From positions 10,213 to 74,212 of the forward strand of contig CADCNI010000002.1 in the NCBI GenBank assembly GCA_902802795.1: a stretch of DNA of 64,000 nt, given 5' to 3'. Source of the DNA: an uncultured Ruminococcus sp. Its GTDB lineage: Bacteria > Bacillota > Clostridia > Oscillospirales > Acutalibacteraceae. The first letter of the stretch is position 1. Every line of letters begins with the position of its first letter. The notes beneath the pieces are model-generated. The model was not told the origin of the DNA and searched no databases. It saw only the letters and a program-made list of their open reading frames with translations. Below are positions 39,915 through 45,275 of this stretch, in pieces. The position numbers and the translations under genes were made by a program.

Positions 39915-41195
39915 TTGAAAAGCAATCAGACAAAGGAAAAAAAGAAATCGGCACTCTTTTATGCCGTCATAGGATTGCTCACGGTGGGTATTGCGGTCGG
40001 TGTGTCACTGCCTTACCTGCTGCACAGGGGAGAGGGTATCCGGGTCAGAGATCACAGCGAGGGGGAATATCCCCGCAACGGCGACGGCGTCGATCAATAC
40101 GGTCGGCCTATGAACTCGTCGGACGAGTTGAGAGGCGTGTGGATTGCCTATCTGTCGCTCGACGGGGTGAACAAGTCCAAGATCGACAGTATGGTAAGCG
40201 CTGCCAAGGCGAATGGCATGAATACCATTTATTTCCATGTGAGGCCTTTTGGTGACGCGCTTTATGCGTCCGACTATTATCCCTGGTCCCACCTTGTCAC
40301 GGGTACACAGGGACAAGCGCCGTCCGACGGCTTCGATCCTCTTGCCTACGCTGTAGAAGCGGCACACCGCGAGGGCTTGCAGCTTCACGCGTGGCTCAAT
40401 CCCCTGCGCATCATGCTCAATTCCGGCGCCTATCCGCCTGCGCTTTCGGATGACAATCCCTATGTCGTCTGGCGCGGCGACGATAATTCCGACAATGACG
40501 ACTGGGTGATCGACTACAAAAAGGGCAAGTATTACAATCCCGCCATTCCTGAAGTGCGCGAGCGTATCGTGAGCGGCGTGCGGGAAATCGTGGAAAAATA
40601 CAATGTAGACGGCGTGCATTGGGATGATTATTTTTACCCCGCCTCCGACGGTTCCTTTGACGACAGCAAGACGTATGCGGCCTATCAGGCGGACGGCGGA
40701 AAGCTGTCGCTGCTCGATTGGCGCACGCAGAATATCAGCGCGCTGGTAAAAGCGGTTTACAGCGCCGTCAAGAAAGCGGACAAAACATGTGTGTTCGGCA
40801 TCAGCCCTGCCGGAAATATCGACAATTGCCTGAGCGCGGGCGCGGATGTCAAGACATGGGGCAGCACCGAAGGGTATGTGGACTACCTCGCGCCGCAGAT
40901 CTATTGGACGAGCGACAATAAGATTGCGCCCTTTGAGCCGATGTGCCGCAAGTGGCGGGCGCTGGTGAGCAGTGACAAAGTGAAGCTCTACATAGGGCTG
41001 GCGCTCTACAAGGCGGGTTCCGACAGCGACAGCGGCAAATGGCAGACGGCGGACGATATCATTATGAATCAGGTGTTGTTCACACGCAGCAGCGAAATAC
41101 ACGCGGACGGCTTCGCGCTGTATTCCTACGCCTATCTTGACAGCGAGCAGACTGCCGAGGAGATGAAGAACCTCCGTTCGGTGCTGGGGGAATGA
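39915..41195 (+). CDS. Glycoside-hydrolase-like family 10 protein (GHL10/YngK-like), membrane anchored
   Basis: An N-terminal TM is followed by RGVWIAY, YFHVRPFGDALY and LQLHAWLNP motifs. TTG 39915 lies 7 nt after GGGAGGA. Confidence 0.8.
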   Translation: MKSNQTKEKKKSALFYAVIGLLTVGIAVGVSLPYLLHRGEGIRVRDHSEGEYPRNGDGVDQYGRPMNSSDELRGVWIAYLSLDGVNKSKIDSMVSAAKANGMNTIYFHVRPFGDALYASDYYPWSHLVTGTQGQAPSDGFDPLAYAVEAAHREGLQLHAWLNPLRIMLNSGAYPPALSDDNPYVVWRGDDNSDNDDWVIDYKKGKYYNPAIPEVRERIVSGVREIVEKYNVDGVHWDDYFYPASDGSFDDSKTYAAYQADGGKLSLLDWRTQNISALVKAVYSAVKKADKTCVFGISPAGNIDNCLSAGADVKTWGSTEGYVDYLAPQIYWTSDNKIAPFEPMCRKWRALVSSDKVKLYIGLALYKAGSDSDSGKWQTADDIIMNQVLFTRSSEIHADGFALYSYAYLDSEQTAEEMKNLRSVLGE

Positions 41196-41219: not shown

Positions 41220-41249
41220 TGACAAATAGGCGGGTTTGATGGTATCATG
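41220..41249 (+). promoter_or_regulatory. Promoter TTGACA-18-(TGg)TATCAT for the membrane PP2C gene
   Basis: The boxes lie at 41220-41225 and 41244-41249. Confidence 0.6.
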
Positions 41250-41294
41250 AATACAGGAAGTTCATCATTTAACGGAGAAAGGAGGAATGATCCG

Positions 41295-42194
41295 ATGGGC
41301 GGTGTTCCTGTCACGCTGGAAATTGCGGCTGTGACTGATATCGGTCAGAAGCGGTCGAGCAATCAGGATAATTTTTATGTCAACGGCTGTTATATTGACC
41401 ACTACAACGCGGTTGCCGAGCGGTTTGACGTGGTGGACAGTCTGAATGCCCATGTGCTGGCGGTGTGCGACGGCATGGGCGGGCAGGCGGACGGCGACGT
41501 GGCCGCCATGATCGGCGTATCGACGATATCGGATTATTCCGATTCGCTCCGGCAGTCCGAAAACAACCAGAACGCGTCCCGTACCGCGCGGCGTATGCTC
41601 CGCGAGGCCAACGGCAGGATATTGGAGAAATGCAAGGAGTCGGGCAAAAAGATGGGTTCTACGGTTTCCATGCTGGTGGTGGCCAATCAGTATGTCTATG
41701 CCTGCAATTTAGGGGACAGCGAAATCTATCATAAGACGCAGTACGGCATCGAGCGGCTGAGCAAGCCGCAGACCTTCGCGCAGGAACTGGTGGATATGGG
41801 AGCCATCTCCGAAGACCAGGCGAGTCGCTCTTACATCCGCAACCAGCTTTCTCAGTACCTTGGCATGGAAAATGTCCGTGGACTTAAGCCTAACGAGAAC
41901 TGTACCACCATTCGCAATGGGGACATGCTGCTCATCTGCTCCGACGGCGTTTCGGATGTGTTGCCCAATCATTCCATCTACGCTACTCTCAGTTCGGGCA
42001 GACCCGTGCGGGACATTGCCGACGCGCTGATTGAAAAGGCGCTGCGCAAGGGCAGCGGGGACAACCTCACCGTGGTGATTGCCAGAGTGCTGGATGACGG
42101 ACGTACCGCGATTCTGCGGCGGCGGCTGGCGCTGCTGTTGGGTGTGACGGCGGGTGTGGTGGCCTTTGTCGCTATGTTGCTGAGTCTGATCTGA
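41295..42194 (+). CDS. PP2C-family protein phosphatase with C-terminal membrane anchor
   Basis: It has DIGQKRSSNQDNF, CDGMGGQ and SDGVSD motifs plus a C-terminal TM (LALLLGVTAGVVAFVAMLLSLI). ATG 41295 lies 9 nt after GGAGG. Confidence 0.85.
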   Translation: MGGVPVTLEIAAVTDIGQKRSSNQDNFYVNGCYIDHYNAVAERFDVVDSLNAHVLAVCDGMGGQADGDVAAMIGVSTISDYSDSLRQSENNQNASRTARRMLREANGRILEKCKESGKKMGSTVSMLVVANQYVYACNLGDSEIYHKTQYGIERLSKPQTFAQELVDMGAISEDQASRSYIRNQLSQYLGMENVRGLKPNENCTTIRNGDMLLICSDGVSDVLPNHSIYATLSSGRPVRDIADALIEKALRKGSGDNLTVVIARVLDDGRTAILRRRLALLLGVTAGVVAFVAMLLSLI

Positions 42195-42372
42195 CGCAAT
42201 CATATATTATACATATTATACAAATCCTATTGGCAACACAAAAGGATTTTTGAAGGATAAACGATTCTTGCGCTGTTATCAAAAAATAGGTTGACTTTTG
42301 GACTTTATACCGTTAAAATATAGGATGCTAAGGTTTGTTATTTTCGCGTTTCGATTTGAGAGGTTGTAGCAT

Positions 42373-42930
42373 TTGAACGGTGTGATCATTGCCTGCCGTG
42401 ACGCGGGCATGGGGGAAAAGCTGGCGCAGGTTGTCTCTTCGTCCGGTATCAGGGTGCTGGGAACAGTCACCAAGGGCGCGTCGGCGCTGCACTTTGCGTC
42501 CCGTTTCAGCGGAGAAGGCGGCGTGCTGTTGTGCACCTATGCCATGAGCGATATGACCGTTATGGAACTTTTTCAGATCAGACCGGAGCATTTTGAGATA
42601 GTGGTGCTGTTGTCCGCCAGACAGCGGGCGATGGTGCGGGGCGAGGGCATGATCTGTCTGGATATTCCCCTCAACCGCCGTGATCTGATCGAAACGCTGG
42701 CGCTGCTTCTTGAGCGGGGCTGGCACGATAACAAGCCTAAACAAAAGGAGCAAAGACCCGCACCGCGCAGCAAAGCCGACAGCGACCTGATTTTCAGAGC
42801 CAAGGCGCTGCTGATGGAGCGCAACAACATGACCGAACCCGAAGCGCACCGCTTCATGCAAAAGAAAAGCATGGACACGGGGGAGAGTCTGGTGGCGGTG
42901 GCGGAAAAAATATGGAACGGAGTTTTGTGA
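42373..42930 (+). CDS. ANTAR-domain RNA-binding antiterminator with a pseudo-receiver N-domain
   Basis: The C-terminal ANTAR helices are present (IFRAKALLMERNNMTEPEAHRFMQKKSMDTGESLVAVAEKI). The N-domain is receiver-like but appears to lack the phospho-acceptor Asp and the conserved Lys. The start is TTG after GAGAGG. Confidence 0.8.
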   Translation: MNGVIIACRDAGMGEKLAQVVSSSGIRVLGTVTKGASALHFASRFSGEGGVLLCTYAMSDMTVMELFQIRPEHFEIVVLLSARQRAMVRGEGMICLDIPLNRRDLIETLALLLERGWHDNKPKQKEQRPAPRSKADSDLIFRAKALLMERNNMTEPEAHRFMQKKSMDTGESLVAVAEKIWNGVL

Positions 42931-43001
42931 GAATGAGCGTTGTACTTTCGGTTTTGTCAAAATCGCATACGAGTGCCGGAATTGCGACGGTTCTTTTTTC
43001 C

Positions 43002-43023
43002 GTTATTCCAATGAGGGGATAGC
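43002..43023 (+). promoter_or_regulatory. Candidate antiterminator hairpin with AAUGAG hexaloop, competing with the terminator at 43016-43047
   Basis: GUUAUUCC (43002-09), AAUGAG (43010-15) and GGGAUAGC (43016-23) form an 8-bp stem with 2 G.U pairs. The 3' arm is the 5' arm of the downstream terminator. Confidence 0.5.
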
Positions 43024-43047
43024 AGTTCATCTGCTATTCCTTTTTTT
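43016..43047 (+). terminator. Intrinsic terminator 25 nt upstream of the dapF start codon
   Basis: GGGAUAGCAG-UUCAU-CUGCUAUUCC forms 10 bp with one G.U, followed by U7. Confidence 0.8.
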
Positions 43048-43071
43048 ATGCTTACAGGAGGGAGAAACCAT

Positions 43072-43911
43072 ATGAAATTTACCAAGATGCACGGCATCGG
43101 CAACGATTATATTTACGTCAACTGCATGAACGGCATGGATTTTGACCCGTCGGAAACTTCCATCCGACTCAGCGATCGTCATTTCGGCGTGGGTTCCGAC
43201 GGCATGATTCTGATCTGTCCTTCGGAGGTTGCCGATTTCAAGATGCGCATGTTCAACGCGGACGGCTCGGAGGGGAAAATGTGCGGCAACGGTGTGCGCT
43301 GCTTTGCCAAATATGTTTACGCCAAGGGTCTGACCGACAAGACGGAAATCACCGTAGAAACGCTCGGCGGCGTCAAGACCGCGCAGCTCACCGTGGAGGA
43401 CGGGGAAGTGACCTCCGTCCGCGTCAACATGGGCGGCCCGATTCTGGAGCCTGCGCTCATCCCCGTCAAGTGGAACGGCGACAGCCTGATCGGTGAGGCA
43501 GTGTCCGTGGCGGGCGGCGAGTGGAACATCACCTGCGTGTCGATGGGCAATCCTCACTGCGTGGTATTCGTGGACGATGTGGACGGCATGGATTTAGAGA
43601 AAATCGGCCCGAAATTCGAGAACGACCCGCTCTTCCCCGAACGCGTCAACACTGAGTTTGTCAAAAAAATCGACGACAGCACGGTACAAATGCGTGTGTG
43701 GGAACGCGGTTCGGGGGAGACATGGGCGTGCGGCACAGGCGCGTGCGCCGTGGCGGTCGCGTCGATTCTCTGCGGTTATGTGACGAGCAACACGGTGACC
43801 GTCAAGCTGCGCGGCGGCGATCTTCGCATCGAGTGGAACCGTGAGGAAAACACCATCTACATGACCGGCCCCGCGACCTTTGTCTTTGAAGGGGAAGTTT
43901 CTTTAATGTGA
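43072..43911 (+). CDS. dapF: Diaminopimelate epimerase
   Basis: It has MHGIGNDY at the N-terminus and two catalytic Cys contexts (MCGNG and ACGTGA). Confidence 0.93.
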   Translation: MKFTKMHGIGNDYIYVNCMNGMDFDPSETSIRLSDRHFGVGSDGMILICPSEVADFKMRMFNADGSEGKMCGNGVRCFAKYVYAKGLTDKTEITVETLGGVKTAQLTVEDGEVTSVRVNMGGPILEPALIPVKWNGDSLIGEAVSVAGGEWNITCVSMGNPHCVVFVDDVDGMDLEKIGPKFENDPLFPERVNTEFVKKIDDSTVQMRVWERGSGETWACGTGACAVAVASILCGYVTSNTVTVKLRGGDLRIEWNREENTIYMTGPATFVFEGEVSLM

Positions 43912-43964: not shown

Positions 43965-45176
43965 ATGTTTACCATCAACGAAAATTTTGTCAAGCTGCCG
44001 GGAAGCTATCTTTTCTCGGATATCGCCAAGAGAGTGGCGGCTTATACCGCCGCGCACCCCGACCAGTCGATCATCCGTCTGGGCATCGGAGACGTGACCC
44101 GTCCGCTCGCTCCCGCCGTGGTGGAAGCCATGAAGCAGGCCTGCGACGAGATGGGCGAGGCGGCCACTTTCCGCGGCTACGGTCCGGAACAGGGCTATGA
44201 TTTCCTGCGGGAAGCCATCGCGGAAAACGACTACCGCGCCAGGGGCATTGCCATTTCTCCCGACGAGGTGTTTGTGAGCGACGGCGCGAAGTCCGACACC
44301 GGCAACATCGGGGATATCTTCGGCAAGGACAACATTGTGGCGGTGTGCGACCCGGTGTATCCCGTGTATGTCGATACCAATGCCATGGCGGGACGGGCAG
44401 GCGAGCCGCAGTCCGACGGCAGATGGAGCAGCCTTGTCTATATGCCCTGCACGGAGGAAAACGGATTTGCCCCCGCGCTGCCCGACAAAAAGGCGGACAT
44501 GATTTATCTCTGTTTCCCCAACAATCCCACAGGCGCTTCCATCACCTATGAGGGGCTGCAAAAGTGGGTGGATTACGCGCTGTCAAGCGGTTCGGTTATC
44601 CTGTATGACTCGGCGTATGAAGCCTTTATCACAGAGGACATTCCTCACAGCATTTTCGAGATCGAGGGCGCGAAGAAGTGCGCCATCGAATTCCGCAGCT
44701 TCAGCAAGACGGCGGGCTTCACGGGTACCCGCTGCGGCTACACCGTTGTTCCCAAGGAGCTGACCTGCGGCGGCGTTTCGCTGGGCGCGCTCTGGAACCG
44801 CCGTCAGACCACCAAGTTCAACGGCGTGCCTTACATCGTGCAGCGCGGCGCGGAGGCGGTTTATTCCGCGGAGGGACAAAAGCAGATTCGCGAGACAATC
44901 GCTTATTATCTCCATAACGCCAAGGTGATACGAGAGGGACTTGCTCAGGCGGGCTTTACCGTGTACGGCGGCGTGAACGCGCCTTACATCTGGCTGAAAA
45001 CGCCGGACGGCCTGACTTCATGGGAATTCTTTGACGAACTCATCAACCGCGCCGGTGTGGTCGGCACGCCCGGTTCGGGCTTCGGCCCGAGCGGCGAAGG
45101 CTATTTCCGCCTCACCTCGTTTGGTTCGCTGGAAAATTCCGTAGCGGCTATCGAGCGGATCAAGAAAGCGTTTTAA
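43965..45176 (+). CDS. dapL: LL-diaminopimelate aminotransferase
   Basis: The N-terminus ([21 protein letters not shown]) and the PLP Lys context ([10 protein letters not shown]) are typical of DapL. AGGAGG lies 10 nt upstream. Confidence 0.9.
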
Positions 45177-45246: not shown

Positions 45247-45275
45247 TTGAAATTGTCATAACACTATGCTATAAT
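45247..45275 (+). promoter_or_regulatory. Promoter TTGAAA-17-TATAAT for carAB
   Basis: The boxes lie at 45247-45252 and 45270-45275. Confidence 0.6.

Follow-up and report, generated by a model that had tools for sequence, protein, structure and literature searches.

A conserved terminator overlapped by a small open reading frame between an ANTAR gene and dapF-dapL in uncultured Clostridia: a possible ribosome-dependent attenuator

Introduction

Between a gene for an ANTAR-domain protein and the diaminopimelate genes dapF and dapL of an uncultured Ruminococcus sp. lies a spacer of 141 nt which, as sequence comparison supports well, is a conditional terminator. The spacer occupies positions 42931-43071 of a 64,000-nt stretch of DNA (contig CADCNI010000002.1 of assembly GCA_902802795.1, positions 10,213 to 74,212), from here on ‘the window’, in whose own numbering positions are given unless a locus label precedes them. 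It holds an intrinsic terminator (T) just before dapF, a second hairpin (AT, for antiterminator) that shares sequence with the 5′ arm of T, and a small open reading frame (sORF) that begins at the end of the ANTAR gene and runs into both. We propose, and are about half convinced, that these parts form a ribosome-dependent attenuator in an operon made of a promoter (42291-42319), the ANTAR gene, the sORF and dapF-dapL. A preliminary description of this DNA had presented the spacer as a switch worked by the neighbouring ANTAR protein; it missed the sORF overlapping the switch, which offers a different effector, namely the ribosome.

The products of dapF and dapL make meso-diaminopimelate (meso-DAP), the residue that cross-links peptidoglycan and the precursor of lysine, and the DAP/lysine pathways of Firmicutes are usually described as being controlled by lysine riboswitches. 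We found no paper that ties dapF to a leader peptide and a terminator. The dap genes are not listed in the supplements of Ramesh et al. 2012 (PMC3369931), and a 2025 review of RNA-binding antiterminators leaves lysine, DAP and peptidoglycan unmentioned.

Results

Two sets of loci were compared with the window. The close family consists of 17 intergenic regions, i.e., that of the window, that of a 95% identical relative (L001, a rumen metagenome-assembled genome labelled Ruminococcus sp. RUG10756) and, with identities of 57-68%, those of 15 others (L002-L005, L081-L090, L134 and L214-L217). One more locus, L091 (50% identity), breaks off 51 nt past the ANTAR stop and stands outside the 17. The distant set is made of 75 more loci, mostly from Lachnospiraceae, whose ANTAR proteins are 33-40% identical to that of the window. 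A metagenome scan with the degenerate terminator motif TAGCARTNNNTYTGCTRTTCC was also run; the pattern was too loose, and the 120 stretches it returned included 1 true relative (L134).

The terminator is the best conserved part of the spacer. In the window T spans 43013-43047, where a terminator scan finds the stem GAGGGGATAGCAG-TTCAT-CTGCTATTCCTTT (43013-43043), with 13 bp and a 5-nt loop (UUCAU in the RNA), followed by a run of seven U's that ends at 43047; its 5′ arm carries the stop codon of the sORF (TAG, 43020-43022). The folding energy is -18.1 kcal/mol, T is unique within the 64-kb window, and the spacer as a whole folds better than all 200 of its shuffles (z = -4.15). T is found in 17/17 sequences of the close family, at -15.6 to -20.5 kcal/mol and with six to nine U's. 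When the 14 distinct sequences are aligned in register, 99.4% of the cells are paired, two pairs show compensatory changes (8 cells), a value reached by no shuffle, and the stem sequence is far more conserved than the remaining intergenic region. The strong intrinsic terminator that the preliminary description had placed just 5′ of dapF is therefore there, and the gap from its U-tract to the dapF ATG measures 24 nt.

In the window this short gap, together with the Shine-Dalgarno (SD) sequence of dapF (GGAGGGAG, 43057-43064, by direct reading of the sequence), leaves no space for a promoter. Across the close family the stretch from T to dapF varies between 21 and 95 nt and is not alignable, and none of the 17 sequences has a promoter-like site scoring at least 9/12 in it. 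The sole promoter-like site that a promoter scan finds near the spacer lies 5′ of the ANTAR gene, as TTGACT and TAAAAT separated by 17 nt (42291-42319, 10/12), and its pattern TTGAC-TTT...TAA-AT is invariant in all 17 sequences, with flanks that cannot be aligned. A conserved T, no promoter after it and an invariant promoter before the ANTAR gene make it very probable that dapF-dapL depend on passage through T, so that the preliminary description's view of a probably compulsory read-through extends from the window to the whole family. A promoter inside the spacer, 5′ of T (TTGTCA at 42952), was considered and rejected, its -10 element not being conserved. The lysine riboswitch (L-box), the T-box and other curated leader RNAs were likewise dismissed, as Rfam returned no family at E <= 10 in 42100-43300; at the gathering score nothing matched in the full 64 kb, and 11 related loci were negative too.

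Just upstream, the hairpin AT (GUUAUUCC-AAUGAG-GGGAUAGC, 43002-43023) has 8 bp, a 5′ arm (43002-43009) that lies within the sORF, and a 3′ arm that has 43016-43023 in common with the 5′ arm of T. This is the mutually exclusive hairpin which the preliminary description saw sequestering the 5′ arm of T, and it can form in every close relative, at -6.3 to -9.2 kcal/mol (-7.6 kcal/mol in the window). AT belongs to the minimum free energy (MFE) fold of the nascent RNA, taken up to the loop of T, in 17/17 sequences, and 95.5% of its cells are paired in the close-family alignment. In the stem, GUUAUUCC and GGRAUAGC hardly vary, and the loop is free. In addition, the 5′ arm, GUUAKUYC, is conserved although its register against the codons of the overlapping ORF differs between lineages (position 1, 2 or 3), and being kept across three reading frames it points to a constraint on the RNA and not on the peptide. 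No upstream pairing partner was found for this arm.

The sORF, a candidate leader peptide of 29 codons plus TAG (MSVVLSVLSKSHTSAGIATVLFSVIPMRG, 42933-43022), is a conserved open frame. Its ATG follows the ANTAR stop by 0-4 nt in 17/17 sequences, in the forms TGAnAATG, TAAATG or TGAATG, and an SD-like GGAG (42919-42922) lies inside the last ANTAR codons (..N-G-V-L-stop). The Gly codon among these is GGA in 15/18 and GGG in 3/18 sequences, never GGC or GGT, a choice that places GGAG or GGGG ~8-11 nt 5′ of the sORF start. The length is 19, 26, 29, 30 or 32 codons among relatives, and 44 in one lineage. From the ATG to the AT arm the sORF frame has no stop in any of the 17 sequences, compared with totals of 26 and 21 for the remaining frames, the chance of the frame being open being 0.08-0.44 per sequence. 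Independent automatic gene callers had annotated the sORF in three assemblies (L081, L084 and L087). With a start and an SD, an overlap with T, and conservation, the sORF has what would be expected, judging from its sequence, of the leader ORF of an attenuator.

The C-terminal half of the peptide has a shared motif, E-N-[T/S]-[T/I/A]-V-x-F, with a nearly invariant Asn and with codons that differ by synonymous and conservative changes (AAC/AAT; ACA/ACC/ACT/ACG; ACA to TCT or TCA), and the N-terminal half is free in sequence and length. The stop codon falls in the 5′ arm of AT in 6 lineages, in the AT loop in 2 and in the 5′ arm of T in 8, the window and L001 counted as one, and all stops but that of L085 lie between nucleotide 3 of the AT 5′ arm and nucleotide 7 of the T 5′ arm. 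In L085 (3046-3209), and also in L086, an extra G in a run of G's shifts the frame and the sORF runs for 44 codons through the whole of T; as it occurs in two samples, this read-through form is probably real.

The sORF of the window also contains a long imperfect hairpin (H1, 42935-42993, ~-19 kcal/mol in the MFE fold), which is followed by a U-rich tract (UUCUUUUUU, 42989-43001), and its outer stem, CGUUGU/GCGACG, has compensatory counterparts in UUGUGU/ACACAA (group A) and UUGCGU/ACGCAA (L087). In the window H1 and its U-tract look like a second, upstream terminator or a pause signal; among relatives the hairpin is weaker or missing. As a universal first terminator they were rejected, since H1 is absent in the 19-codon variants and the z-scores are unremarkable.

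As to the surrounding locus, the genes, the spacer with its elements and the promoter all lie on the plus strand. A GHL10-family gene (39915-41195) and a gene for a PP2C phosphatase (41247-42194) precede the ANTAR gene (42373-42930, TTG start, 185 amino acids with an N-terminal pseudo-receiver; Pfam ANTAR at 2.8e-15). The spacer is followed by dapF, for diaminopimelate epimerase (43072-43911; TIGR00652 at 2.3e-96, Pfam DAP_epimerase), by dapL, for LL-diaminopimelate aminotransferase (~43965-45176; TIGR03542 at 4.9e-187), whose start was taken as the ATG opening MFTINENF, and, 3′ of dapL, by carA and carB. The order GHL10-PP2C-ANTAR-dapF-dapL is kept in every close relative with enough flanking DNA. 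Directly 3′ of the PP2C stop lies a box, ATACATATTATACAA (42209-42223), within a tandem TATTATACA repeat; it is kept in most close relatives, ~70-95 nt 5′ of the ANTAR promoter, and may be the operator of a transcription factor. Upstream of carA there is a strong promoter-like site (45247-45275, TTGAAA-17-TATAAT with a TG extension, 11/12), and carAB are therefore probably a transcription unit of their own after dapL.

Discussion

The sORF, AT, T, their overlap and the absence of a promoter after T are observed, and from them we infer the remainder of the mechanism. Ribosomes finishing the ANTAR gene would re-initiate on the sORF, and a ribosome that reaches its last codons would melt AT. If the footprint of a ribosome is assumed to reach 12 nt past the first A-site base, a ribosome standing at the sORF stop would cover 10-13 of the 10-13 nt of the T 5′ arm, i.e., all of it, in 11 lineages including that of the window, and 4-5 of its 12-13 nt, i.e., its base, in 6. 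In the window, where 27 nt separate the stop from the end of the U-tract, this ribosome would directly abut the RNA polymerase at its release site in the U-tract. As long as the sORF is translated by a ribosome keeping pace with the polymerase, T would be unable to fold and transcription would continue into dapF-dapL; with the sORF untranslated, or the ribosome lagging behind, the weak AT would be displaced by the more stable T and the transcript would end. Under this scheme AT would most likely be a transient or pause hairpin that holds the 5′ arm of T until the ribosome arrives. The opposite polarity, of the trp type, would have a ribosome stalled at the conserved E-N-T-T codons and AT left intact, and is less consistent with sORF stops that lie inside the 5′ arm of T.

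Several points weigh against this interpretation. That the sORF is translated, and that this affects termination, we infer from sequence, which cannot decide the polarity of the switch. Nor do all Firmicutes couple transcription and translation tightly. In the window itself the peptide motif is degenerate (GIATVLF), and Lys codons, of which there are 0-3 per peptide, are not enriched and nowhere conserved, for which reason a lysine-starvation attenuator based on Lys codons was rejected. The close relatives are not independent of one another but amount to ~10 clearly diverged lineages. For AT the preliminary description had looked to both conservation and covariation among relatives: the first is there, the hairpin being formable in 17/17 sequences, whereas the second is not, as five pairs are invariant, two vary on one side, none shows a compensatory change and one is G.G in 5 sequences. 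Finally, AT is much weaker than T, in the manner of protein-stabilised antiterminators, which makes a trans-acting stabiliser plausible.

Such a stabiliser, be it an RNA-binding protein or a small molecule acting through a riboswitch, could read the stem of AT and hold it against T, in which case the sORF would only modulate the outcome. Besides the weakness of AT, the nearly invariant stem and free loop would suit a factor of this kind. No conserved aptamer is seen, however, as the ~55-95 nt 5′ of AT vary both in length and in sequence and fold no better than their shuffles (z of -2.0 to +0.5), the Rfam search was negative for the lysine riboswitch and the T-box as for every other family, and no candidate protein can be named, so that we regard this explanation as unlikely.

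It could also be argued that T is an ordinary leaky terminator, which ends the ANTAR (or ANTAR-sORF) message and lets a fixed, low level of read-through reach dapF-dapL, with the sORF being a small protein gene, or having no role in termination, and AT being incidental. Intra-operon terminators that set the stoichiometry of regulator to enzymes are common, AT shows no covariation, and, where the ANTAR-dap spacer is long, several Lachnospiraceae loci do show a plain terminator directly behind the ANTAR gene. Those loci, however, also have a TGnTATACT-type promoter after the terminator, and the close family has none. Nor is there, for an incidental AT, any other visible reason why its 8-nt 5′ arm should be kept in three reading frames. 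The stem of T is far more conserved than the rest of the spacer, which is what two alternative partners would lead one to expect. The sORF stop is always inside AT or T, the 44-codon form of L085 excepted, and leader peptides typically have such a freely varying N-terminal half. Controlled passage is what one would look for where genes needed for peptidoglycan and lysine lie behind a terminator of -16 to -20 kcal/mol with U7-9. All in all, a merely leaky T seems rather improbable to us.

The effector originally put forward was the ANTAR protein, which would bind the hexaloop of AT, stabilise this hairpin against T and so turn dapF-dapL on. A typical ANTAR substrate consists of two hairpins of at least 3 bp whose hexaloops have A at position 1 and G at position 4 (A1/G4), the second hairpin (P2) overlapping the terminator; in the eut RNAs the linker is 5-12 nt long, and mutation of the loop A1 or G4 abolishes EutV binding and induction (PMC3369931). 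Walshe et al. 2022 (PMC8934654) reduced the minimal ANTAR site to a single hexaloop and showed, in the EutV-RNA structure, a G4 that is flipped out and stacked on the ANTAR domain. The loop of AT in the window, AAUGAG, carries both of these bases, as had been pointed out, but this signature is not kept in the family: it occurs at the AT position in the window and L001 only, and in 0/15 of the other relatives, whose loops are GAUUGG, GAUAAA, AAUAAA, UAUUGG, AAUUGGG, GCUUAGG, GAUACA, GACUCA, GUCAG, GUCAA and GUAAG. Given that ~1/16 (~6%) of random hexaloops would be A1/G4, its presence in 1 of ~10 lineages is at chance level.

Searches for the remainder of an ANTAR substrate were equally negative. 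The first hairpin (P1, an A1/G4 hexaloop hairpin upstream of AT) is absent in the window, a caveat that the preliminary description had itself raised, and in the 16 relatives as well. The suggested check of 42931-43071 against Rfam (release 15) matched no ANTAR-target family. A covariance model (R1) was built from 11 canonical dual-hexaloop leaders of glnA, at loci with homologues of the window's ANTAR protein; neither 42931-43071, searched at E <= 10, nor the close family gives a match, which is a weak negative given how sequence-specific R1 is, and its best match in the window lies elsewhere, at E = 0.41. When the whole 64 kb was scanned for any pair of A1/G4 hexaloops with a U-run behind it, 2 matches came up against 0.35 expected, both apparently within coding sequence and judged to be due to chance. 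The 5′ untranslated region of the ANTAR gene shows no ANTAR-type hairpin or terminator that is consistent among relatives.

In favour of the ANTAR protein one can still mention that its gene is immediately upstream in all 17 close-family loci and that distant homologues share operons with dapF-dapL. AT overlaps the 5′ arm of T and is weak, as known protein-stabilised antiterminators are, the window loop has both of the required bases, and a single-hexaloop minimal site makes the missing P1 non-fatal (PMC8934654). Still, the loops of 15 relatives have no G4 in spite of highly conserved ANTAR domains, when it is G4 that stacks on the domain (PMC8934654) and changes at positions 1 and 4 abolish EutV binding (PMC3369931). 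P1 is missing from every relative, R1 gives no match in the spacer, the window or the close family to set against this, and at the loci of the Lachnospiraceae homologues no terminator separates the ANTAR gene from dapF. Thus AT is not upheld as an ANTAR substrate; on the sequences compared, it is probably not the ANTAR protein that acts on AT, and we regard its binding to the AT hexaloop as very improbable. A neighbouring ANTAR gene and one A..G.. hexaloop are, in general terms, insufficient to call an ANTAR target.

The protein itself deserves some comment. It matches Pfam ANTAR and not Response_reg, and a profile of its family aligns over the full length with Rv1626/PdtaR (1s8n, 2.8e-18) and EutV (6wsh, 4.8e-15), its closest solved structures, the N-terminal part aligning with CheY receivers as well. 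In the alignment to 1s8n and 6wsh the column of the phospho-acceptor Asp falls in the stretch C54-x-Y56, none of whose three positions is Asp, and C54 and Y56 are invariant in 33 homologues. This agrees with the earlier alignment in which the receiver appeared to lack its acceptor, and supports a pseudo-receiver of the AmiR or NitR-like type, i.e., a receiver-like fold predicted to have no acceptor Asp. A gene for a PP2C-type Ser/Thr phosphatase with a hydrophobic C-terminal tail lies directly 5′ of the ANTAR gene in all close relatives. This neighbour, and Cys54 and Tyr56 at the acceptor site, hint that a partner protein or Ser/Thr/Tyr phosphorylation controls the regulator, and not a histidine kinase.

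Matters seem to be different in the distant set, where glnA is directly 5′ of the ANTAR gene in ~70/75 loci, and dapF and/or dapL directly downstream of it in ~65/75. About 60-70 loci from Lachnospiraceae and related bacteria (within L006-L080; e.g., L043:2590-6657, L034 and L079) have the order glnA-ANTAR-dapF-dapL or glnA-ANTAR-dapL, and as the ANTAR-dap spacers are often 4-60 nt long, one transcript appears to carry the dap genes together with those of glutamine synthetase and a NitR-like regulator. A strict sequence pattern finds a canonical dual-hexaloop element that overlaps a terminator 5′ of glnA in 11 loci (L020:2544-2590, L021:2530-2573, L030:2492-2539, L034:2485-2530, L047:2580-2626, L048:2582-2628, L049:343-386, L050:2503-2550, L059:2433-2488, L066:2449-2496 and L079:2447-2493). 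The consensus of these leaders is AGGAC-AAGGGC-GUUCU, a linker, AAG-AAUGCC-CUU and then U's, with AAGGGC as the P1 loop and AxUGCC as the P2 loop. R1 adds ~8 weaker matches 5′ of glnA (L043, L042, L006/L007, L051, L040, L080, L044). The preliminary description had considered ANTAR control of DAP genes to be unusual; such control probably does exist, to go by these gene orders and leaders, in the glnA-ANTAR-dapF-dapL operons of Lachnospiraceae, and it is not exerted through AT here. Operons of glnA and an ANTAR gene with ANTAR RNA matches are already in Table S2 of Ramesh et al. (PMC3369931), and a clostridial ANTAR protein linked to glnA, NitR of C. saccharobutylicum, is known, as summarised in PMC6316151.

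Three further observations were made in these distant loci. The module of sORF and terminator was not found in the Lachnospiraceae spacers, which have plain terminators and promoters or are 4-60 nt long. In several loci of the Enterocloster type R1 also matches just 3′ of dapL (L058:6763-6806, L072:6652-6698, L045:6695-6740, L060:6465-6509, L067/L075:6897-6948) or just 3′ of dapF (L031:5442-5487); these matches could be ANTAR leaders of the next gene, or simply similar terminators. Lastly, a second, divergent DapF-like gene (33-36% identity) lies 5′ of glnA in Enterocloster-type loci (L016:1577-2392, L058:1497-2318, L060:1388-2194, L067/L075:1559-2347).

How does the spacer compare with known systems? 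In the pyrBI leader of E. coli (pyrL) and the tet(M) leader of Tn916 (orf12), both ribosome-coupled attenuators, the leader ORF runs into the terminator. The window likewise has a short ORF with its own SD that overlaps a terminator, and a U-rich tract upstream of that terminator; in the proposed model it is also a ribosome keeping up with the polymerase that blocks the terminator from folding. Unlike these two, however, its sORF does not open the message but is coupled to the stop of a 185-aa regulator gene, there is an additional conserved hairpin in the form of AT, and the genes controlled are dapF-dapL.

The classical amino-acid attenuators with leader peptides (trp, his, thr, leu) resemble the spacer in that a leader ORF and alternative AT and T hairpins precede a biosynthetic operon, and the E-N-T-T codons lie far enough 5′ for a stalled ribosome to leave AT free. 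The resemblance ends there: the window sORF has no run of codons for Lys, the product of the pathway, the stop lies inside the 5′ arm of T in most lineages, a misfit to the trp-type geometry, and there are no separate 1:2, 2:3 and 3:4 pairings, the 5′ arm of AT having no upstream partner.

With the RNAs bound by ANTAR proteins (EutV/eutP, NasR/nasF, AmiR/amiE) the spacer shares a small hairpin, with six loop nucleotides and a 3′ arm that doubles as the 5′ arm of a terminator, and an adjoining ANTAR gene (PMC3369931, PMC8934654); it differs from them in having no P1, no conserved A1/G4 and no R1 match. As for regulators of the NitR/GlnR type, the ANTAR protein of the window shares 33-40% of its residues with small ANTAR proteins whose genes directly follow glnA at ~70 Lachnospiraceae loci. 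Its own gene, however, follows a PP2C gene and not glnA, to which it is adjacent neither in the window nor in the close relatives (all with GHL10-PP2C-ANTAR); in addition, the sORF and terminator separate it from dapF-dapL, and neither R1 nor the generic scan finds a canonical ANTAR RNA within the window.

It is tempting to speculate on what the peptide might do. The E-N-T/S-T-V-x-F peptide might be a regulatory leader or arrest peptide, whose stalling would report a metabolic state to T and thereby gate the synthesis of meso-DAP, the module having replaced the glnA-leader ANTAR control that acts on the same genes in Lachnospiraceae. A candidate for this state would be the nitrogen or glutamine status, read through the amidotransferase-dependent charging of Asn and Gln tRNAs; another would be a metabolite of the DAP pathway sensed in the exit tunnel. 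The idea as a whole is a long shot.

In conclusion, instead of the lysine riboswitch usually described for these pathways, a whole lineage of uncultured rumen and gut Clostridia has placed a strong terminator and an overlapping, conserved mini-ORF, coupled to a regulator gene, before dapF-dapL. In Lachnospiraceae the widespread glnA-ANTAR-dapF-dapL operon appears to tie DAP synthesis to nitrogen control. If the ribosome-dependent attenuator proposed here is real, it would be a new family of leader-peptide attenuators, for the synthesis of a cell-wall precursor, and an example of attenuation that is located inside an operon and coupled to translation of the gene before it.

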